From an uncultured virus (IMG/VR IMGVR_UViG_3300004369_000007) (Duplodnaviria > Heunggongvirae > Uroviricota > Caudoviricetes): a stretch of 20,000 nucleotides of DNA. The position numbers and the translations under genes were made by a program. The notes under the pieces were generated by a model. The model was not told the DNA's origin and did not search any database. It saw nothing but the letters and a program-made list of their open reading frames with translations. Numbering within the stretch: the stretch's first letter is position 1; each line of letters starts with the position of its first letter. The stretch lies in the IMG/VR virus record IMGVR_UViG_3300004369_000007; one strand, 5' to 3'. Of the stretch, positions 2,171 to 12,304 are shown one piece after another.

Positions 2171-2476
2171 CATGAGACTGTCTCGCTTGTTGTCTCAATG
2201 TGAGACGGTGAGGTTATGCAACACAACCCCTTAGAACCTTGCGGAAACCCGTAAAAATAAGTTGTCTCATCTCGTCTCATCAAAAAAGGGATATATTTCT
2301 CTCTCTTTACCCCATAGAATATAAGGGGTTATGTAAGAGAAGAAGAAGAAGATAGATAGATAGATGAGATAGATGAGATAATGAGAAATATATAATAAAT
2401 CTATACTTATGTTGCATAACCTTGATGATTCTTTCATGTCTTGTCTCGTCTCATACCCTCCCGACCATGAGACAAC
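2171..2476. repeat. cluster of GAGAC/GTCTC motifs around a purine-rich low-complexity tract; candidate origin or terminal element
   Basis: Nine GAGAC/GTCTC copies (2174, 2180, 2192, 2202, 2264, 2274, 2443, 2448, 2469). GTTGTCTCA occurs at 2189 and 2261 and inverted at 2468. An AGA/GATA tract spans about 2336-2386, followed by AT-rich 2480-2540. Confidence 0.55.
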
Positions 2477-2683
2477 CACTTTAGTTTAGTATAATACTAA
2501 TATTGAATATTAGAATATGAATATGAATTAATATAACTACAATTGAGGAACACCCTGTCAAATCTGACGGATTTTTGGGGGCTGAAAATTATCCCTATTT
2601 CAGTTGCATTGACTATGGCTAAATAAGGAGATTCTTCTTTCTTTGATGTTTTCAAAACCATATGGTCATGCTTTGTTTTTTGA

Positions 2684-2693
2684 CCCCGAAGGG
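2684..2693 (-). terminator. short UUCG tetraloop hairpin after gene 2697-2939
   Basis: The minus strand reads CCC-TTCG-GGG immediately after the stop codon. Confidence 0.45.
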
Positions 2694-2696
2694 CGG

Positions 2697-2939
2697 CTAA
2701 GCCATATCATCTTGGATTTTGGATAATATCGTGTTCATCATATCCATCATCGCTTGATGAGTCATAATCTCAGCAAATCCAGCCCATGACTGTTCAAAGG
2801 TGATAATAGCAATCATAGCATGAGGTTCGTCAAAATAATGCATATCGGTGTTAATGGCTTCGTAAAATTGGTCTGCAATAAAAGGCTTAAGGACTTTAGG
2901 AAAGGTTTCGCATAGTAGGTTCACAATCTCTCTTGACAT
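2697..2939 (-). CDS. hypothetical protein (80 aa, MSREIVNLLC...)
   Basis: The ORF track starts at 2990, inside the palindrome. ATG at 2939 is preferred because it lies about 26 nt below a TATA-like box (ATACCCTAAAC on minus, 2964-2974). Confidence 0.7.
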   Translation of the reverse strand: MSREIVNLLCETFPKVLKPFIADQFYEAINTDMHYFDEPHAMIAIITFEQSWAGFAEIMTHQAMMDMMNTILSKIQDDMA

Positions 2940-3010
2940 GGTTCTAACATAGAATATCTTATTGTTTAGGGTATTACAAAGCATTACCATATGGTCGTAA
3001 CTTTGAGTAA

Positions 3011-3024
3011 CGGCCCGAAGGCCG
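3011..3024 (-). terminator. UUCG tetraloop hairpin after gene 3028-3153
   Basis: The minus strand reads CGGCC-TTCG-GGCCG. Confidence 0.6.
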
Positions 3025-3027
3025 CCA

Positions 3028-3153
3028 TTAACGGCAATCGGGGCAAATCCAAACTATTCGCAATTCCTTAACCCAAGTATCATTTCCATATTGGTCGTAA
3101 AAACAAACCGTTCCGTCAGCATTACATTCTTCACAATACATTGTTTCTTCCAT
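3028..3153 (-). CDS. 41-aa zinc-ribbon microprotein
   Basis: Manual translation: MEETMYCEECNADGTVCFYDQYGNDTWVKELRIVWICPDCR*. It has two CxxC pairs, fills the interval between sites 2986 and 3201, and is followed by a UUCG hairpin. Confidence 0.75.
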   Translation of the reverse strand: MEETMYCEECNADGTVCFYDQYGNDTWVKELRIVWICPDCR

Positions 3154-3261
3154 GCTTAACCTAAAAATGTGCATATTCATTGAGGTATTACCAAAGCACT
3201 ACCATATGGTTGATGATTGCTTTGCATATTAACAACCTTATCTGTTATTCAATGGGTTTTA

Positions 3262-3590
3262 TTGCTTCGGGGGTCTTGCCCTCGGAGGGGATTCATATTC
3301 CCTTGGTTGATTGGCCATATACACCAATCGGAAACAAAGCCGAAACACAGAGCAGTAAAGCGAGAAAGTAACAAGTAATCATTTATTGGCGCGCCAATTC
3401 TTGATGAAGGAACAAAGTATCGGTGTGAGTCTCATATGCATGGAGTAGGCGGCGTTTCTCATATTCACATTAAACCCCCCGTTTGAGAGCAACTGATGTA
3501 GGTAACGGCTAAGGTTTAGAGAGCCATAAACGGACATATAGCATACGAAAAAGATTTACTGCTTTCCCTGTCCGTTTATGGCTCGCCCAT
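3262..3590 (+). ncRNA. putative structured non-coding RNA (boundaries approximate)
   Basis: Unit between sites 3201 and 3629, with the AACCTTAT promoter motif (3234) but no convincing ORF. It has several stems, including a perfect 16-bp inverted repeat (3521-3536/3569-3584). Confidence 0.4.
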
Positions 3591-3656
3591 TTAGATAAGG
3601 TAATGATTAAGTGCAAAGCATAATCATTACCATATGGTCATGCTTTGTCTTTAATT

Positions 3657-3668
3657 GGCCCGAAGGCC
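3657..3668 (-). terminator. UUCG tetraloop hairpin after gene 3672-3920
   Basis: The minus strand reads GGCC-TTCG-GGCC three nt after the stop. Confidence 0.55.
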
Positions 3669-3671
3669 GTT

Positions 3672-3920
3672 TTACCGCTTAACGCGGCCATTTGTGATGT
3701 CGTCAATGAATTGCATGATTTTCGGGATGACAGCCTCCAATTCCGAGCCACCCTTAATGGAGAAATTGACTCGGTAGAAATCCGTATTCATTCGGCAATA
3801 AAGCCCCGTGTCCCTAATAAAGCCGTAAATCTCACCCATGTAGTTAATAGCCTCCGAACAGGTTTTAATGTTGATGCTGGCGATTCCAGTAATCAAATTG
3901 CGCGTATAACTTGCTTTCAT
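3672..3920 (-). CDS. hypothetical protein (82 aa)
   Basis: Fills the interval between sites 3629 and 3980. AACCCTATAG box (minus, 3942-3951) lies about 23 nt upstream of the ATG, and a hairpin follows the stop. Confidence 0.75.
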   Translation of the reverse strand: MKASYTRNLITGIASINIKTCSEAINYMGEIYGFIRDTGLYCRMNTDFYRVNFSIKGGSELEAVIPKIMQFIDDITNGRVKR

Positions 3921-4012
3921 GCCTTATACATGGATAAGAGGCTATAGGGTTGCATCTCCATTGAGAAACAAAGTATGCAACCATATGGTTGATTATCGCT
4001 TTGCGTGGAATC

Positions 4013-4022
4013 AACCTTATAC
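4013..4022 (+). promoter_or_regulatory. AACC(T/C)TATA TATA-like promoter motif (representative copy)
   Basis: Copies on plus at 3234, 4013, 4705 and 5117, and on minus at 3942-3951 and 1002-1012. Each is oriented toward the downstream gene or RNA. Confidence 0.6.
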
Positions 4023-4096
4023 GCTATTGCGTGGGTTAGGTTGCTTCAAGGGGGGAAAAACACTTGAAGACACTTTTACAAACGAGGTGAAAAAAC

Positions 4097-4621
4097 ATGA
4101 AGATGAAAAATTGGACATTGAACACGAACAAGGTTCGGGCGTGGGCTGAAAATCAACCCAAATCCGACAATTTGAACGCTGTGTTGCTATCGCTCACTTT
4201 GGGCGACAATGCGGCTTCGGACGAACTTAGAAGCACCTATTGGACGGCTATTCGTTCAATTGGCTCCACTATGGAGGGTTTTCCTGCGGCACGACGAGGG
4301 CGGGAATCAACGCTTTCGGAGGAACAAGAACTTGTTTTGGCGACTGTGGAGGAAAGCGTGGCTCATGCTATTGCTCAAATCCCTACTGACTATCAAAGCA
4401 TGATTCTTTCCGTTATCGTGCCTCATGGACGAACTGGTGGCGTTTATGAGACTTTTGGCGATTTGGTGGATTCTTTCCGTTCAAAGGCTCATTCCTACAT
4501 GGTTAAGGCCATTAAGGAAGACCGTTGGGATGGACTATCCGTTGATGACAACGGAGTTCCCCAAATCACGCCACCACCCGTTAATTCGGGTGATTCGGAA
4601 GGAGGTTCCGAGGAAGAGTAA
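4097..4621 (+). CDS. hypothetical protein, paralog 1 (174 aa, acidic tail)
   Basis: GAGGTGA RBS. Shares LRSTYWTAIRSIGS, ARRGRES, PHGRTGG and RWDG with 5198-5701. Confidence 0.9.
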   Translation: MKMKNWTLNTNKVRAWAENQPKSDNLNAVLLSLTLGDNAASDELRSTYWTAIRSIGSTMEGFPAARRGRESTLSEEQELVLATVEESVAHAIAQIPTDYQSMILSVIVPHGRTGGVYETFGDLVDSFRSKAHSYMVKAIKEDRWDGLSVDDNGVPQITPPPVNSGDSEGGSEEE

Positions 4622-4645
4622 GTCTGCAAGGTTTTCCCCCCTTGT

Positions 4646-4663
4646 GGCCCCTTTCGGGGGGTT
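4646..4663 (+). terminator. UUCG tetraloop hairpin after gene 4097-4621
   Basis: GGCCCCT-TTCG-GGGGGTT. Confidence 0.55.
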
Positions 4664-4735
4664 AATGCAAAGCCTAACCATATGGTTGCATACTTTGGTA
4701 ATAAAACCCTATATTTGCCTATTAAGGGGTTAATC

Positions 4736-4957
4736 ATGTTCCAAAGAAGGCACTACCAAAAGATGGCTGAAACCCTTGCAACCGTTCATAACATTGACAA
4801 TATGCCCATAGAGGCGGTTAGTGTTATGTTTTCTCGTGATAATCCCAATTTTAGCGAGGAACGGTTCTTTGAGGCTTTTCGCAAGGAATATGAATGGGTA
4901 TGGGGAGAAACCTATCCATTTGCCCTTAGAGGCCGCTATGAGCGTTTAAACGCTTGA
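4736..4957 (+). CDS. small hypothetical viral protein (73 aa, MFQRRHYQKMA...DNPNFSEERF)
   Basis: ATG lies about 23 nt below AACCCTATAT (4705). The R..Y...A / F..DNP.F...RF pattern resembles a small phage protein family as I recall it (not verified). Confidence 0.75.
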   Translation: MFQRRHYQKMAETLATVHNIDNMPIEAVSVMFSRDNPNFSEERFFEAFRKEYEWVWGETYPFALRGRYERLNA

Positions 4958-5197
4958 ATAAACAACTGGCGAGTGGGTTTTGATTGTTTCCCACAGGTAA
5001 TGGAGCGTCGGACAGGGTTAAAGTCCAAATAGCCGAAAAATAAAACAATCCCCGTTGGGTATTAACAAAGCATTACCATATGGTTGTTTTTCGCTTTGCG
5101 AGTGTAACATAAAAACAACCTTATAGGTTATTGTGAGGTTGAGGTTGCTTCGGGGGGAAAACGGAGCATCAAAACCTTTATTGGAGGATTGATTACC

Positions 5198-5701
5198 ATG
5201 AATGCAACAAATTGGATAAAGAACACAAACGCCGTTCAAGCGTGGCTTGAGCGTGAAGATAGGGGAGATGTCGGTAATGCGATTTCTCTTTCTATTACCC
5301 TTGGAAATGCGACGGATAGCGATGATTTGCGCTCCACCTATTGGACAGCAATTCGCTCAATTGGAAGTCCTTATGACGATTTCCCAGTCGCCCGCCGAGG
5401 CCGAGAATCATCTTTGCCCGAAGAAGTAGAGTTGTCTGCGACTTCTGTGAAGAATGCGGTCATTACTGCCTTTGCGGGTATTTCTAACGCTGACTTGATT
5501 ACTACCGTTATTCTCCCTCACGGGCGAACAGGCGGAGCATTTGAGAACATTGAGGCACTTGCCGAGGCTATGGGCAAAAAGGCCTATGATGCTCTCGTTA
5601 AGGGCTATAAGGAAGGTCGTTGGGATGGAACCATGAACGGTGAAATCCCAGCATTGACCCCACCTGCGGCTAAAGACGAAGGAGGTCAAGAAGAGGAATG
5701 A
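5198..5701 (+). CDS. hypothetical protein, paralog 2 (167 aa, acidic tail)
   Basis: GGAGGA RBS before ATG 5198. Clear paralog of 4097-4621. Confidence 0.9.
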   Translation: MNATNWIKNTNAVQAWLEREDRGDVGNAISLSITLGNATDSDDLRSTYWTAIRSIGSPYDDFPVARRGRESSLPEEVELSATSVKNAVITAFAGISNADLITTVILPHGRTGGAFENIEALAEAMGKKAYDALVKGYKEGRWDGTMNGEIPALTPPAAKDEGGQEEE

Positions 5702-5720
5702 TGTTCCCAATTCCCCCCGT

Positions 5721-5740
5721 AGCCCCACTTCGGTGGGGTT
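5721..5740 (+). terminator. UUCG tetraloop hairpin after gene 5198-5701
   Basis: AGCCCCAC-TTCG-GTGGGGTT. Confidence 0.6.
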
Positions 5741-6109
5741 CCGTTAAATAACTGGCAAAGCCAACCATATGGTGTTGAAGTTTTTAATAACTACTATTTA
5801 GAGATAATAGAGTTATGATTATATTCGTCATAAAAGAGCGTAAACAAACATTTTGTAGTTACCAATAGCGTTCTATAGAGAACTGTTAAGGAAGATGAGA
5901 ATAAAACAATAGATGAAAATGGTAGTTATTAACAACTTTTCACGCATTCATAATCTACAACCATATGGCTTTGTTTCAAAATTTTTTATTTATGTAGAGT
6001 TAAATGAAATCGCTCTAAAGGGCCTATTTTAAAGCATTAACTTTAAATAAAGCAAGGTTAAAGCCGCCAGTATTATAGGCTATGGCTTCCTCCCATAACA
6101 TGATACTGT

Positions 6110-6352
6110 ATGTCTGCTGAACAAGAGGCTATTTCTCATTTAAATGAGATATTCACCATTATCAAAGAAACCCTTGAAGAAGCAAAGGAAAACAGAAAAT
6201 TTGCACGAGAATTGTCAAATAATGAGGAAAGAGCACTTACTGAAATAACAAATAAATTAAAACAAGTTCGCTCAAATTTAGACAAATACTTAAAATCATT
6301 CCGTGTGCAAACTACATTAACTCAATTTGGCGTTGGAAATACTGAACAATAA
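6110..6352 (+). CDS. small helical protein with C-terminal PIP-box-like motif
   Basis: 80 aa, coiled-coil-like. Ends ...RVQTTLTQFGVGNTEQ (QxxLxxF). Confidence 0.75.
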   Translation: MSAEQEAISHLNEIFTIIKETLEEAKENRKFARELSNNEERALTEITNKLKQVRSNLDKYLKSFRVQTTLTQFGVGNTEQ

Positions 6353-6435
6353 ACAATATTATTAACATAATTAATTTAATTATTATTATTCGCATTTTTA
6401 TAACAACATCTTTACACGGCGGCCAAATTGATTAT

Positions 6436-6491
6436 CTTTAAACGAACAACTTTAAATGAATAACTTTAAATGAACAAATTTAAATGAATAA
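6436..6491. repeat. 4 x 14-bp tandem repeat (C/A)TTTAAA(C/T)GAA(C/T)AA
   Basis: CTTTAAACGAACAA, CTTTAAATGAATAA, CTTTAAATGAACAA, ATTTAAATGAATAA in an AT-rich intergenic region. Confidence 0.85.
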
Positions 6492-6587
6492 ATTTTTATC
6501 CTGTTTATACAATTCATAAAATTTAAATGAGAACGCAAGTGCCGAAAAAATTCCGAGTCATTTTTTGAGAAAATTAAGGTGATTAAC

Positions 6588-6839
6588 ATGAGTTGGGAAG
6601 ATATTGTTAAAAAAGAATACAATAATGCGTATGATAGATTAAGAGACGAATTACAAGCCAACGGTAATTCTCCCGAAGGTAAAACTGAGATTTTATTAGG
6701 TTTGTTTGAACAAATGGGCATTTTACATGGAAATATGAATCCTTTTGAGGCAGCGAGAACAGTTTTAAATCAAATTAGTTTTTTAATAAAAGAGGAACAA
6801 ATTGGTCTTATGATTGATGAAGATGAGAGGGGTTTTTAA
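6588..6839 (+). CDS. W-tag hypothetical protein (MSWEDIVKK...)
   Basis: AGGTGA RBS, ATG 6588. Confidence 0.8.
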   Translation: MSWEDIVKKEYNNAYDRLRDELQANGNSPEGKTEILLGLFEQMGILHGNMNPFEAARTVLNQISFLIKEEQIGLMIDEDERGF

Positions 6840-6887
6840 ACCGCCAAAAAAATTCCGAGCCATTTTTTGAGAAAAAAAGAGTTGATT

Positions 6888-7097
6888 ATGATGAATTGGG
6901 CAAGTATTATTAAAAGAGACCCTCCCACTTGTTTTAACTGTAATGTTTTTATGACTCCTCAAGAAACACGCTTATATGCAGATAGATGTTCTCTTTGTAA
7001 TAGTGCAATTGAATATTCTAAAAGAACAGGAAAAGAAATGCCGAATACTTATCAGCCTTCAAGACAATATGGCGAAGAAGGTTATACGGGGAAATAA
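6888..7097 (+). CDS. W-tag protein with Zn finger (MMNWASIIKR; CFNC...CSLC)
   Basis: Start placed after the repeat module. Two CxxC pairs. Confidence 0.75.
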   Translation: MMNWASIIKRDPPTCFNCNVFMTPQETRLYADRCSLCNSAIEYSKRTGKEMPNTYQPSRQYGEEGYTGK

Positions 7098-7135
7098 ATT
7101 CCGAGTCAAATTTTGAGAAAAAAGAGTTGATTAAG

Positions 7136-7507
7136 ATGAAATGGGAAGATATACTTAAAGATGAAGGATTTAGAGAAGAACACAAAGAACGATTAGGTTC
7201 AATGCGTTCTTCTAAACAACCAATGTTTGATGAGCGAGATAATCCAGCAGATATGGTGTCTGAGATGGTGTTTAAAATTATTGATTTTGACAAACTAGAA
7301 CGGTTTCTTCAAATGTCTAAAGCCCACTACATGAGGGCTATGGATGTTAAAAACTTCACTCCTCCGAGTTTATCCCAAAATGATGAAAATAAATTAATAA
7401 ATGGTCTTGAATTAATTTTGAATAAAGAAATTGCTTCCTATGTTGAAGAAGCCAGAAAAAATCAAGGTGAAAACCCCTTACCTAAATACGACCCAAAGGG
7501 TATTTGA
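7136..7507 (+). CDS. W-tag hypothetical protein (MKWEDILKD...)
   Basis: ORF track, with the start moved to the ATG after the repeat module. Confidence 0.8.
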   Translation: MKWEDILKDEGFREEHKERLGSMRSSKQPMFDERDNPADMVSEMVFKIIDFDKLERFLQMSKAHYMRAMDVKNFTPPSLSQNDENKLINGLELILNKEIASYVEEARKNQGENPLPKYDPKGI

Positions 7508-7517
7508 GGTGATTAAC

Positions 7518-7745
7518 ATGAATTGGACACATATTATTAAAAATGAAGATATGGGCAATTGGGAAGACGAAACGGGCGAACTAACTGATGAACAGTTTGA
7601 TAAATTACTTAAGTTGTGGAGAATGATTAAAGAATCATGGGATTTTTTTCAAGATAATTCGGAACTTCACTCAATTAGAGAACTAGATGATGTTGATACT
7701 TATTTACAAAAAGCGGCGAGTATTGTTTTTGATTTAACAGGGTGA
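7518..7745 (+). CDS. W-tag hypothetical protein (MNWTHIIKNED...)
   Basis: GAGGTGA RBS, ATG 7518. Confidence 0.8.
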   Translation: MNWTHIIKNEDMGNWEDETGELTDEQFDKLLKLWRMIKESWDFFQDNSELHSIRELDDVDTYLQKAASIVFDLTG

Positions 7746-7779
7746 AAAAATTCCGCCAAAAATTTTTGGAGAAATTAAC

Positions 7780-7887
7780 ATGACAAGATGCATTTATTTA
7801 GATTCATGGTTTGACTCTCAATCAAAGCGTTTAGACGAAGAAGAACAAAAACAAAAGAAAGACTTAATTACAGGTGAGAGAAAATGA
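7780..7887 (+). CDS. 35-aa hypothetical microprotein
   Basis: MTRCIYLDSWFDSQSKRLDEEEQKQKKDLITGERK*. It follows the repeat module and has an ATGA overlap with the next gene. Confidence 0.6.
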   Translation: MTRCIYLDSWFDSQSKRLDEEEQKQKKDLITGERK

Positions 7888-8180
7888 GTTGGAAAGATAT
7901 TATTAAAAACGAAGATTTCGGCTATTGGCTAAATGAAGAAACGGGCGAACCCATTCGTAATTTTGACTATGGCGGAAGTTTGAACAAAAAGTTTAAACCA
8001 AAGTGTCAAAACGGCCCTTGTTTAAGAATTGCTAATGGGACTGATGGAATTGGTTTTTGTATGCCTTGTGAAGATGATGCAAGCGATAATCGTTTAACTG
8101 ACCCTAAAAGCCCATATACAAGGGAGAACCAAATGAAAAACCCTACCCTCCCTAACATTTTTGTAGGTGATGAAAAATGA
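7884..8180 (+). CDS. W-tag protein with Cys cluster (MSWKDIIKNED...; CQNGPC...CMPC)
   Basis: AGGTGA RBS. ATGA overlaps at both ends. Confidence 0.8.
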   Translation: MSWKDIIKNEDFGYWLNEETGEPIRNFDYGGSLNKKFKPKCQNGPCLRIANGTDGIGFCMPCEDDASDNRLTDPKSPYTRENQMKNPTLPNIFVGDEK

Positions 8181-8530
8181 GTTGGAGAGATATTGTTAGA
8201 AAAAGCAATTGCACCGCAAAAATGGGACATTGCAGTTGCGAGGAATGTTTGAATAAGGGCGGTTGTCCTCATTGTGATGGAAATGCACCACGAAGCGAAT
8301 GTATTTGTGGACAAACAAATAAGGCCTCTAAGCCTGATTTTCTTGACCTTGACGGTGATGGAAACAAAACCGAATCTATGAAAGAAGCGGCAAAGTCCAA
8401 GAAATACAATGATACAGAAAAGAAAGCAAAAATGAAGTGTCCTAAATGTAAAGGAAAAGGATGCGCCCATTGTAAAGGGACTGGTTATCACGAAATTAAA
8501 TCAAAAAATCCATTTACTCGGAATGATTGA
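8177..8530 (+). CDS. W-tag Cys-rich protein with DxDxDG (EF-hand-like) and CxxCxGxG motifs
   Basis: MSWRDIVRK; multiple CxxC/CxC; PDFLDLDGDGNKTE; CPKCKGKGCAHCKGTG. Confidence 0.8.
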   Translation: MSWRDIVRKSNCTAKMGHCSCEECLNKGGCPHCDGNAPRSECICGQTNKASKPDFLDLDGDGNKTESMKEAAKSKKYNDTEKKAKMKCPKCKGKGCAHCKGTGYHEIKSKNPFTRND

Positions 8531-9545
8531 GATGTGGAAAGAAATCGTCAAGTTTGACGAAAGAGATGTGGAAAGCCGTGTTCAAAGAACAGGCTATTGT
8601 CGCCGTTGTCAGCAAATGGTTACTAAATATCAAAAATGCCCATTAAGACTTCCAGCACCACCTGTTAGTCCAAGTTGCCCGATGAGAGAAGAAGAAGGAA
8701 GAAGAATGCTAATTAAATGGTTAGATATTCTAAAAGTAGATGATATTGACTTTGATAAAGACCTTCAAGCATTTGGGGCATATTCCCATGAAAATAAACA
8801 TAGCACTCCACAAGAAGTAATGGATGTTATGATTACTTCTATGCTGAGGGGTAAAGCCCCCGAACTTAAGGATTTAGTTGAAGAAAAAATCAGAATTAAT
8901 CATCAAGGTATTTATAGATATTTAAAGCATAAATTAGAAAGGGAACCCACAGAAAAAGAAATAATGGAATTTGTAATTAGAACAATTATGCACGAAGGCA
9001 CTCATGCTGGAATGGGAACAGAACAATTCCCCATGTCCGATAGTGCATCAGAATATGGAGCAATTGTTGGACAATTTCCAGAAAATACTTATTATAGATT
9101 AAAAACATATCTTAAACACCCAGATTCTCAAACAAGAATACTTCCTCGTATATTTGACGACTTAGGTGTTAAAACAGCAGTTAGTAAAGAGCCAGTAGAA
9201 GAAGTTAAGGTTTTGATTGGGTTTATTGATGGTTTGACTGATGATATTAAAAATAAAACGCATCAGGAAAAAGCAAGAGAAAAACTAGCAAGGATGGAAA
9301 TAACTGCTAGGACACACAAAAAGAATCAAAAACTTACAGATATTGACCCAAGTAATCTAGATGAATTAGTTGGAAGATATGGAGAAAAACATAGAAATTT
9401 CCTTTCAAAACTATTAAATGATGTTGAATTTGATGATAGCGAACTTAAAATGGCGGCAACCGTTACTACTTCATCTGCCCCCGCTATGTTTAATAAAGTG
9501 GTGAGGGGTAGGGAGAAGCGGAGGGATAAGGATGCCCGAAGATAA
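8523..9545 (+). CDS. putative zinc metallopeptidase-like protein (HExxH) with two W-tags
   Basis: RTIMHEGTHAGM followed by a downstream E (SEYGA). MWKEIVK at the start (alternative start 8532) and internal KWLDILK. Confidence 0.7.
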   Translation: MIEMWKEIVKFDERDVESRVQRTGYCRRCQQMVTKYQKCPLRLPAPPVSPSCPMREEEGRRMLIKWLDILKVDDIDFDKDLQAFGAYSHENKHSTPQEVMDVMITSMLRGKAPELKDLVEEKIRINHQGIYRYLKHKLEREPTEKEIMEFVIRTIMHEGTHAGMGTEQFPMSDSASEYGAIVGQFPENTYYRLKTYLKHPDSQTRILPRIFDDLGVKTAVSKEPVEEVKVLIGFIDGLTDDIKNKTHQEKAREKLARMEITARTHKKNQKLTDIDPSNLDELVGRYGEKHRNFLSKLLNDVEFDDSELKMAATVTTSSAPAMFNKVVRGREKRRDKDARR

Positions 9546-12064: not shown

Positions 12065-12304
12065 ATGAGTTGGAAAGATATTTTTAAATCGGATTCTTTT
12101 AAAGAAATGATTTTAGATTTTGTAGATAAAGCCAAACCAAAAGATGAGTTTGAAAAAGGTGTCTTACAATTAATAAAACATATGGTAAAAAACAGAATAG
12201 GGATGGAAGATGATTATATTAAACATGAAGTCATAAGATTGCTAGATTTTGTAAGTGATGAAAATTTTAAATTATCAGATGAGATGCAGGAGAGATTAGC
12301 ATGA
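12065..12304 (+). CDS. W-tag hypothetical protein (MSWKDIFKS...MQERLA)
   Basis: ORF track. Its C-terminus duplicates that of 10990-11655 (MQERLQ). Confidence 0.8.
   Translation: MSWKDIFKSDSFKEMILDFVDKAKPKDEFEKGVLQLIKHMVKNRIGMEDDYIKHEVIRLLDFVSDENFKLSDEMQERLA

Follow-up and report, generated by a model that had tools for sequence, protein, structure and literature searches.

Does the short palindrome that recurs between the genes of an uncultured virus simply accompany their promoters, or does it bound expression units that are exchanged among viral genomes? The question is raised by a 20,000-nucleotide (nt) stretch of the virus IMG/VR IMGVR_UViG_3300004369_000007 (hereafter the window, that is, the whole stretch at its full length), in which the initial annotation had described an array of single-gene cassettes delimited by nine palindromic sites in about 3.3 kb and had read these as possible symmetric recombination sites allowing cassettes to be gained, lost or inverted. 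A scan of the window located the palindrome ACCATATGGT exactly at eight positions within 3.3 kb, together with one terminal variant, ACCATATGGC, at 5960. With up to one mismatch allowed, 10 matches were observed against 0.43 expected from dinucleotide shuffles, the richest shuffle holding 3 and none of the 200 reaching 10; the tenth match, at 12177, falls within an open reading frame (ORF) and is probably there by chance. The CAAAG/CTTTG arms at a variable distance from the palindromic core were present as described, and the 22-mer common to the sites at 3980 (reverse) and 4677 (forward) is real.

The test set in advance was whether related viruses differ in the content, order and orientation of their genes, with the changes falling exactly at the core, and they do. 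In 61 inter-genome pairs of cores with at least 80 nt of flanking homology, 60 were homologous on one side only. Homology ended 0–29 nt past the core, directly at its edge (0 nt) in 16 cases and no more than 4 nt on in 24. The window and contig L177, which are 92% identical, share the homology blocks 1–2995, 3968–4703 and 5072–6603. In 29 distinct right-anchored arrays, the same cassette families occurred in either orientation (family F1, 45 forward and 9 reverse; F2, 3 and 9; C6, 3 and 3; C2, 12 and 2). Three contigs with flanks 93–98% identical (L316, L317 and L315) carry the cassette orders A-B, B-A-C and A-C-B, respectively, and at 11 of 11 junctions the spacers and arms travel with the cassette. 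No rearrangement was seen in the pairs L326/L327 (97% identical) and L323/L332 (99.9%). Thus neither of the outcomes that would have spoken against exchange, a conserved gene order and orientation or breakpoints unrelated to the sites, was observed; the alignments show that relatives have gained, lost, permuted and inverted cassettes, with the junctions at the palindrome.

One event allowed the position of exchange to be narrowed further. Contig L318 differs from L319 (97–98% identical) by a 314-bp one-gene insert placed exactly at one core, and both junctions of this insert are hybrid (ACCATATGCT on the left, AGCATATGGT on the right). At the insert's own ends the arm directly abuts CATATG, and the cassette recurs, variant halves included, in contig L331, where its left neighbour is a different one. 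The hybrid junctions and L331 together therefore place the exchange between positions 2 and 9 of the core, within the central CATATG. Further variant halves, namely ATGGG and, at the backbone edge, ATGGC-TTTG, likewise stay with their flank, the opposite half being canonical. Two sets of contigs add adjacencies of the same kind: an RNA-library contig joins 3628 to 3980, skipping 351 bp (3629–3979, comprising the site at 3629, which is one end of the skip, and the fourth cassette) with the 10-letter core common to the joint, and DNA contigs of the public run X5 span from core to core (3980–5077 and 5075–5766) with other cassettes as loose ends. All these comparisons are between metagenome assemblies, and the exchange is seen only on an evolutionary or population scale; a 10-bp repeat should be too short to cause assembly misjoins on its own.

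The anatomy of the sites was compared in seven arrays with 55 exact cores, that is, 110 half-sites. CTTTG lies 3–10 nt outward of the core in 94 of the 110 half-sites, most commonly at 4 nt (n = 41), whereas it occurs in 5% of random 25-nt windows. Each cassette is flanked at both ends by an inverted half-site composed of ATGGT, 3–10 nt and CTTTG, and two abutting halves make up ACCATATGGT. Among 199 sites with both arms, the spacers were of equal length in 26 and the palindrome was perfect through the arms in none; the outward identity of the two halves was 0.28, compared with 0.41 for random partners, and no complementarity was found beyond the core. Since the halves differ in their spacers and are not complementary, the palindrome consists of two independent cassette ends placed back to back rather than of one hairpin-forming unit. 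The core itself is strongly constrained. Arrays contained 285 unique exact sites and 41 sites with one mismatch, 19 of which were the terminal variant; the armed, non-terminal one-mismatch sites among those listed vary only at positions 1, 2, 9 or 10.

A box of the form ACC[ACT]TA was found within 60 nt of the core on 31 of 39 gene-start sides and on none of 39 gene-end sides, which shows each cassette to carry its own predicted archaeal promoter box (ACC-N-TA, resembling a B recognition element (BRE) and TATA box), in agreement with the TATA-like box reported earlier for each unit. The distance from the TA of the box to the start codon was 25–30 nt in 11 of 19 non-F1 cassettes, a leaderless-like spacing, and 68–80 nt in 10 of 12 F1 cassettes, while the box itself lies 13–35 nt from the core. 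The sites stand at gene ends as well as at gene starts, unlike those of a simple operator. Junctions follow the order hairpin, site, promoter, and the GC hairpins at gene ends are not followed by a T-run. Archaeal intrinsic terminators normally require a T-run, which makes it plausible that a further signal, for instance a bound protein, helps to stop transcription; the GC/UUCG hairpins may be RNA-stabilising ends or partners of a protein bound at the palindrome.

The palindrome array is a real, strongly non-random and clade-wide feature. Five related records contained 14, 10, 7, 7 and 9 exact sites, all clustered, and a reversed-pattern control gave 0. Each genome has one cluster of 3–4 kb and no site outside it, two clusters 94 kb apart being present only in the 184.7-kb record G001. 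The arrays of this record, at 5306–9029 and 99604–103195, differ in cassette content, and its two sub-genomes show about 92% and about 70% identity to the window; G001 is probably two related genomes fused in assembly. When viral contigs were scanned with the armed pattern, at least 176 stretches were recovered, many of them clustered, whereas in cellular genomes 120 of 120 among the matches listed were lone sites accompanied by no cassette-family protein. The association also holds from the protein side. With the F1 protein as sole query, 26 loci were recovered, all 26 with cores (6–10 each, except one at a contig end), and F1 is encoded in 55 of 58 long loci found by the motif with at least four cores compared with 2 of 26 single-core loci. 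The motif is therefore not a genome-wide promoter operator, as it is confined to the array or arrays and occurs at gene ends too.

The carrier of the array is a magrovirus, a tailed double-stranded DNA virus of marine group II (Poseidoniales) archaea, and probably belongs to group B. Two complete relatives, G003 (96.8 kb) and G004 (96.1 kb), are both rated 100% complete, and gene content beyond the 20-kb window was scored in G004. Its 121 ORFs, searched with Pfam and PHROGs, include a family-B polymerase split over two ORFs, a clamp-loader ATPase and a primase-like protein; ERCC4 with helix-hairpin-helix domains, a Cas4-like nuclease and an AAA_24 ATPase; two ATP-dependent ligases (DNA_ligase_A_M), a ribonucleotide reductase, the chaperonin Cpn60_TCP1 and a histone-fold protein; and the structural genes for portal, terminase, prohead protease and an SU10-type capsid protein. 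A tRNA-Leu(TAA) is present in the window at 820–904, the 27 window ORFs being otherwise uninformative (a helicase fragment and a terminase fragment by Pfam and PHROGs). In the part of the magrovirus description on which we rely (PMC5434244), group B members have genomes of about 100 kb that combine a structural module of tailed-virus type with a near-complete replication module of archaeal type, and a split family-B polymerase, two ligases, ribonucleotide reductase, chaperonin and tRNA-Leu are their characteristic set. The agreement of the G004 genes and of the window tRNA-Leu with this set means that the host is an archaeon and that the TATA-like boxes are archaeal promoters. Bacterial promoters (sigma-70 –35/–10 and Bacteroidetes –7/–33) had also been considered; their spacings did not fit by eye, and they were dropped once the G004 genes showed an archaeal virus. 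A cultured-phage collection gave no DNA match for 2400–6300 and no protein match for the 375-aa ORF. The array lies between leftward replication genes and rightward structural genes.

By what means, then, are cassettes exchanged at the palindrome? The explanation that we favour, to which we assign roughly an even chance, is that exchange is targeted. A dimeric protein would recognise the ACCATATGGT palindrome, and breakage-rejoining or strand exchange would occur at its dyad; because the centre is symmetric, ends could join in either orientation, giving excision, insertion, permutation and inversion. The candidate agent is either viral, namely the F1 family or a 131-aa LAGLIDADG-like protein acting with the two ATP-dependent ligases of the virus, or an enzyme of the host; once bound, the protein may in addition insulate the cassettes or co-regulate them. 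The confinement of exchange to 6–10 bp of identity speaks for targeting, as does the fit between a symmetric site and orientation-free joining. On a rough estimate, events per site are about as frequent as in the promoter-early stem-loop (PeSL) cassettes of T4-type phages, where about 100 bp of homology are available. The stronger form of this reading, in which a dedicated, orientation-independent exchange system has a dimeric enzyme cut the ACCATATGGT centre and the ends are rejoined, with frequent shuffling during infection or co-infection, is possible yet distinctly doubtful. In that form the enzyme could be the LAGLIDADG-like protein aided by the ligases, or a recombinase not recognised as such, for example F1.

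Of the candidate agents, the LAGLIDADG-like protein is single-domain and present in four of the five related records, including all three that are complete (L338:154–549 in G003, L187:392–787(–) in G004, and L339, L340 and L341). In G003 its gene lies in the terminal redundancy and adjoins an AAA ATPase gene. Its best match in the PDB is a meganuclease half-domain (E = 2.9e-4). Single-domain LAGLIDADG enzymes act as homodimers on palindromic sites.

Several observations weigh against targeted exchange. Pfam (E ≤ 1e-3, all 121 ORFs) and, for the 88 ORFs to which Pfam gave no annotation, PHROGs (E ≤ 1e-5) revealed no integrase, resolvase, transposase or invertase family in G004, and the same two databases gave no recombinase family among the 27 window ORFs; the absence of a visible recombinase from the window had been recorded at the outset, and the search beyond it that was proposed at the time turned up none in this complete relative. 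The LAGLIDADG-like protein scores 12.8–13.2 bits against a Pfam cutoff of 22.5, the model giving only sub-cutoff matches, in two of the five records; by eye its motif has no evident acidic residue at the usual catalytic position and looks degenerate, and nothing in the sequences ties this candidate to the palindrome. The 10-bp core is the sole sequence common to unrelated cassettes, and short-homology recombination would therefore also place exchange at the core. One 11-nt string of spacer plus arm is found on four unrelated cassettes, which hints at exchange outside the centre or at convergence, and arms that stand at varying distances from the core differ from known recombinase sites, whose geometry is fixed. 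Neither a rearrangement within a clone nor an excised circle was seen among the assembled contigs. Finally, whole array orders may be chimeras of co-occurring strains, although each adjacency must exist in some genome.

The most serious competitor of targeted exchange, with a substantial probability that falls short of even, treats the palindrome above all as the binding site of a regulatory protein that co-regulates or isolates the cassettes and bounds them in the manner of PeSLs, whether as operator, as upstream activating site, or as roadblock or insulator placed between a hairpin and the promoter that follows. Recombination would then be done by the virus's own replication and recombination proteins, with shuffling as a by-product of short-homology or template-switch events at the one sequence common to all junctions. 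Such a role, named at the outset as an alternative in the form of a dimeric regulator or insulator, may coexist with recombination. The order of hairpin, site and promoter at every junction agrees with such a boundary, and so do hairpins lacking T-runs, beside which an additional stop signal such as a bound protein is plausible; the intact site at 3629, however, lies between two gene ends with no promoter. Selection on binding would explain why the core is kept so strictly across very divergent arrays (the F1 proteins of L178 are only 16–30% identical to those of the window), but a distance of 13–35 nt between core and promoter makes a poor geometry for an activator, a site clear of the TATA box and of the start makes simple occlusion unlikely, and the regulator that would bind it is only putative. 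No recombinase family was found in G004, which does encode a Cas4-like nuclease, an AAA_24 ATPase, ERCC4 and ligases, and precedents exist in the parts used here of the accounts of T4-type phage PeSLs (PMC2839356) and of the intergenic motif of the archaeal virus HGTV-1 (PMC3950731). Against this stands the length of the identity, 10 bp, and 6 bp in the L318 event, compared with about 100 bp in PeSLs as described in the same part of that account (PMC2839356), while rearrangement is still frequent among genomes that are 92–98% identical.

Two further explanations carry much less weight. Non-autonomous transposon-like units with terminal inverted repeats (ATGGT..CTTTG) might insert at the central TA of a junction, with a transposase acting in trans. 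The inverted-repeat ends do travel with the cassette, fixed backbone half-sites bound the arrays, and the L318 insert fits insertion at the central TA, each new junction retaining one resident half; the present data do not separate transposition from site-specific exchange. This explanation is nevertheless improbable, as Pfam and PHROGs gave no transposase family, whether DDE, HUH or other, for G004, the spacing of the repeats is variable, and the five related records have no copies outside the array. That the palindrome acts through its structure or in processing, as an RNA hairpin, a DNA cruciform, a replication-origin repeat or a packaging signal, we regard as very improbable indeed. The element is palindromic and intergenic, and an RNA-library contig crosses one site; but the spacers are not complementary, as set out above, the 10-mer alone allows a stem of just 3 bp, no Rfam family was matched, and, in contrast to origin iterons or packaging sites, the palindromes are separated from one another by genes and spread over 3–4 kb.

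Comparison with known systems identified two closest known analogues, the PeSLs of T4-type phages and the intergenic motif of the haloarchaeal myovirus HGTV-1. According to the portion of the PeSL study used for this comparison (Arbiol et al., 2010; PMC2839356), PeSLs are mobile regulatory cassettes whose promoter and stem-loop are together conserved over about 100 bp; they lie in ORFan-rich hyperplastic regions and bound insertions and deletions between close relatives, and excision of circles followed by reinsertion has been proposed for them. The magrovirus arrays resemble them in forming a hyperplastic region of small ORFans in which each gene has a promoter and a stem-loop, and in that insertions, deletions and replacements between relatives end at a repeated intergenic element. 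They differ in that the repeat of PeSLs comprises promoter plus stem-loop, whereas the part common to magrovirus cassettes is a separate 10-bp palindrome with 5-bp arms, the promoters and hairpins differing from one cassette to another; in addition, magrovirus cassettes also invert and permute, and their promoters are of the archaeal TATA type. In HGTV-1 (KC292026, 128–144 kb; L336:34000–49856), at least 21 copies of a 68-nt intergenic element precede small leftward ORFs, and direct inspection of KC292026 showed the element to be a hairpin-forming inverted repeat between two TATA-like boxes, a motif likened to PeSLs in the part of a review that covers it (PMC3950731). Both viruses are archaeal and tailed, and in both, elements combining a TATA box and an inverted repeat precede many small ORFs in one arm of the genome. 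The HGTV-1 element, however, is about 68 nt long and 60–85% conserved, forms a true stem-loop-stem hairpin, precedes genes that all run in one direction in the region inspected, and has no sequence likeness to ACCATATGGT.

The parallel originally drawn with integrons and shufflons did not hold up to the same degree as exchange at the palindrome itself: the latter stood, while the features that define membership of either class were lacking. Like integrons, the arrays consist of single-gene cassettes bounded by recombination-associated inverted repeats, with variable content and order and a large pool of mostly unknown genes. Unlike them, they show no tyrosine recombinase (Phage_integrase) in the window ORFs or in G004, and their sites are not attC-like folded hairpins (0 of 199 perfect palindromes). 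Integron cassettes lack promoters and are expressed from a common one, whereas magrovirus cassettes have their own (with a box on 31 of 39 gene-start sides), lie in either orientation, are not inserted solely at one attI end and are carried by an archaeal virus. In shufflons and invertase switches (Rci/sfx, Hin, Gin, Cin), segments of a single gene are rearranged through asymmetric or 26-bp sites, the recombinase gene is adjacent and inversion is the only outcome. Short inverted sites that let segments invert and reorder within one locus are common to shufflons and to the magrovirus arrays, but in the latter whole expression units are gained, lost and permuted, and no resolvase/invertase family was found in the window ORFs or in G004. 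The stoperators of mycobacteriophage L5 type, which are asymmetric, orientation-dependent, genome-wide and tied to a known repressor, and are thought to block transcription, share with the present sites the occurrence of many near-identical, short putative protein-binding sites in short intergenic regions of a virus; the magrovirus site is instead palindromic and confined to one array, and its cognate protein is only putative. A literature search with the core string gave only cloning primers among the matches listed. No description of a promoter, palindrome or array was found by term search in the main text of the magrovirus papers examined, supplements lying outside that search, or in broader searches.

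Within the window, the array opens with an exact site at 2657–2666, its left edge, whose outward (left) half-site is part of the conserved backbone and whose left flank is kept in L177, L179 and L180. To its left, no convincing ORF was recognised in 1919–2656 (about 740 bp), where the listed ORFs encode low-complexity peptides; short AT-rich repeats lie near 2500–2560, and the block 817–2666 is still 84% identical to L179. The first seven intervals between sites each hold one ORF or non-coding RNA, in the orientations –, –, +, –, +, +, +, as had been annotated and as the placement of ORFs and RNA confirmed, and five cassettes close in a GC hairpin of the UUCG type. The first cassette (2667–2985, –) belongs to family F2 (C3), found in both orientations and at differing positions among relatives; its gene occupies 2697–2939(–), with a promoter box at about 2941–2985 and the UUCG hairpin at about 2676–2690. 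The exact site at 2986–2995, at which L177 homology stops precisely, leads to the second cassette (2996–3200, –), with a 50-aa ORF at 3028–3180(–) that has a weak, sub-cutoff zinc-ribbon match and with a hairpin at 3014–3027. From the next exact site (3201–3210) promoters diverge on either side, and the third cassette (3211–3628, +) encodes a structured non-coding RNA. Two gene ends meet at the exact site 3629–3638, with a promoter box on neither side. The fourth cassette (3639–3979, –) has its gene at 3672–3920(–) and its hairpin at 3657–3668, and its family, C6, is also that of the L318 insert.

The remaining cassettes are all forward. L177 homology restarts 12 nt ahead of the exact site 3980–3989, after which the fifth cassette (3990–4676, +) encodes the first F1 paralog (4097–4621(+)), with a promoter box near 4009–4018, a leader of about 70–80 nt and a hairpin at 4647–4665. 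An exact site at 4677–4686 precedes the sixth cassette (4687–5074, +; family F3 (C4)), the gene of which (4736–4957(+)) has a leaderless-type promoter at 4706–4716. The longest ORFs of the first and sixth cassettes (2697–2990 and 4682–4957) start at an ATG within the palindrome; the in-frame ATGs at 2937–2939 and 4736–4738 lie 25–30 nt past the promoter box and are the likelier starts. At the exact site 5075–5084 the contigs of run X5 begin or end, an alternative left neighbour appearing as a loose end, and the seventh cassette (5085–5763, +) encodes the second F1 paralog (5198–5701(+)) and closes in a hairpin at 5716–5735. Beyond the last exact site (5764–5773), the interval 5774–5959 is AT-rich, has no ORF and bears an inverted repeat of about 16 bp at its edges (near 5784–5797 and 5921–5934); it is conserved in L179 and L180 and could be an origin or regulatory region. 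The terminal site (5960–5969) has the variant ACCATATGGC, its arm abutting the core and a T-rich box following, and forms the right backbone edge of the array. This variant was found in all seven arrays compared, with its array-facing half always canonical.

We also analysed what the cassettes encode. The 293 unique core-to-core intervals have a median length of 455 bp, and the 246 with an ORF of at least 35 aa fall into 86 families. Among 56 family representatives, one passes its Pfam cutoff, Kyano_Gp96, a cyanophage family; this cassette family has 18 members (L183:10459–10743 in G004, E = 2e-19; L015:4103–4510, E = 5e-18), and from its match to cyanomyovirus proteins it follows that an archaeal virus and cyanophages of the same habitat have a small accessory gene in common. 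F1 proteins, present in 2–4 copies in each of the seven arrays compared, are about 170 aa long and all-alpha with an acidic C-terminal tail, and their 232 homologs are all unnamed or hypothetical. F1 had no Pfam or PHROG family. Its predicted model (predicted local distance difference test score 78.7, predicted template modelling score 0.45) gave nothing at E ≤ 0.001 with Foldseek against the PDB, no usable match in the ESM Atlas, and only generic three-helix bundles with Z below 8 in a wide VIA-align search. The backbone gene at 1445–1918 (–) resembles, by eye, a distant F1 paralog.

The RNA cassette is about 540–670 nt long in relatives (full-length copies at L322:2731–3394 and L329:2380–2991), the window copy (3211–3628) lacking about 240 nt internally. 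In an alignment of eight sequences, 27 of 116 predicted pairs were compensatory, whereas shuffles gave 14.1 ± 1.8 (0 of 500 reaching the observed value) and slid controls 0–7. An RNA-library contig covers the region. No Rfam family was assigned to this RNA, only a sub-threshold manA match of 20.5 bits being obtained; on the window the tRNA was the sole match at gathering level, and nothing relevant appeared at E ≤ 1 for 2400–6300.

Among the archaeal viruses of the surface ocean, magroviruses rank with the most abundant, and both they and their hosts are uncultured. For these viruses the array provides a sequence-defined route for rapid turnover of accessory genes, with 86 families in 293 intervals, nearly all of them unknown, and it brings a cis-regulatory annotation that includes a BRE/TATA-like box, leaderless starts and cassette boundaries. 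The L318 insert is a naturally marked crossover that narrows exchange to the 6-bp centre of the palindrome. If exchange is not directed by an enzyme, the PeSL principle known from T4-type phages would also apply in an archaeal virus, there with a far shorter repeat. If it is enzyme-directed, the arrays would represent a site-specific system of a new kind, whose site is symmetric and very short, and a dedicated system would be, in effect, a viral integron or shufflon of archaea in which each accessory gene is a self-expressing cassette.

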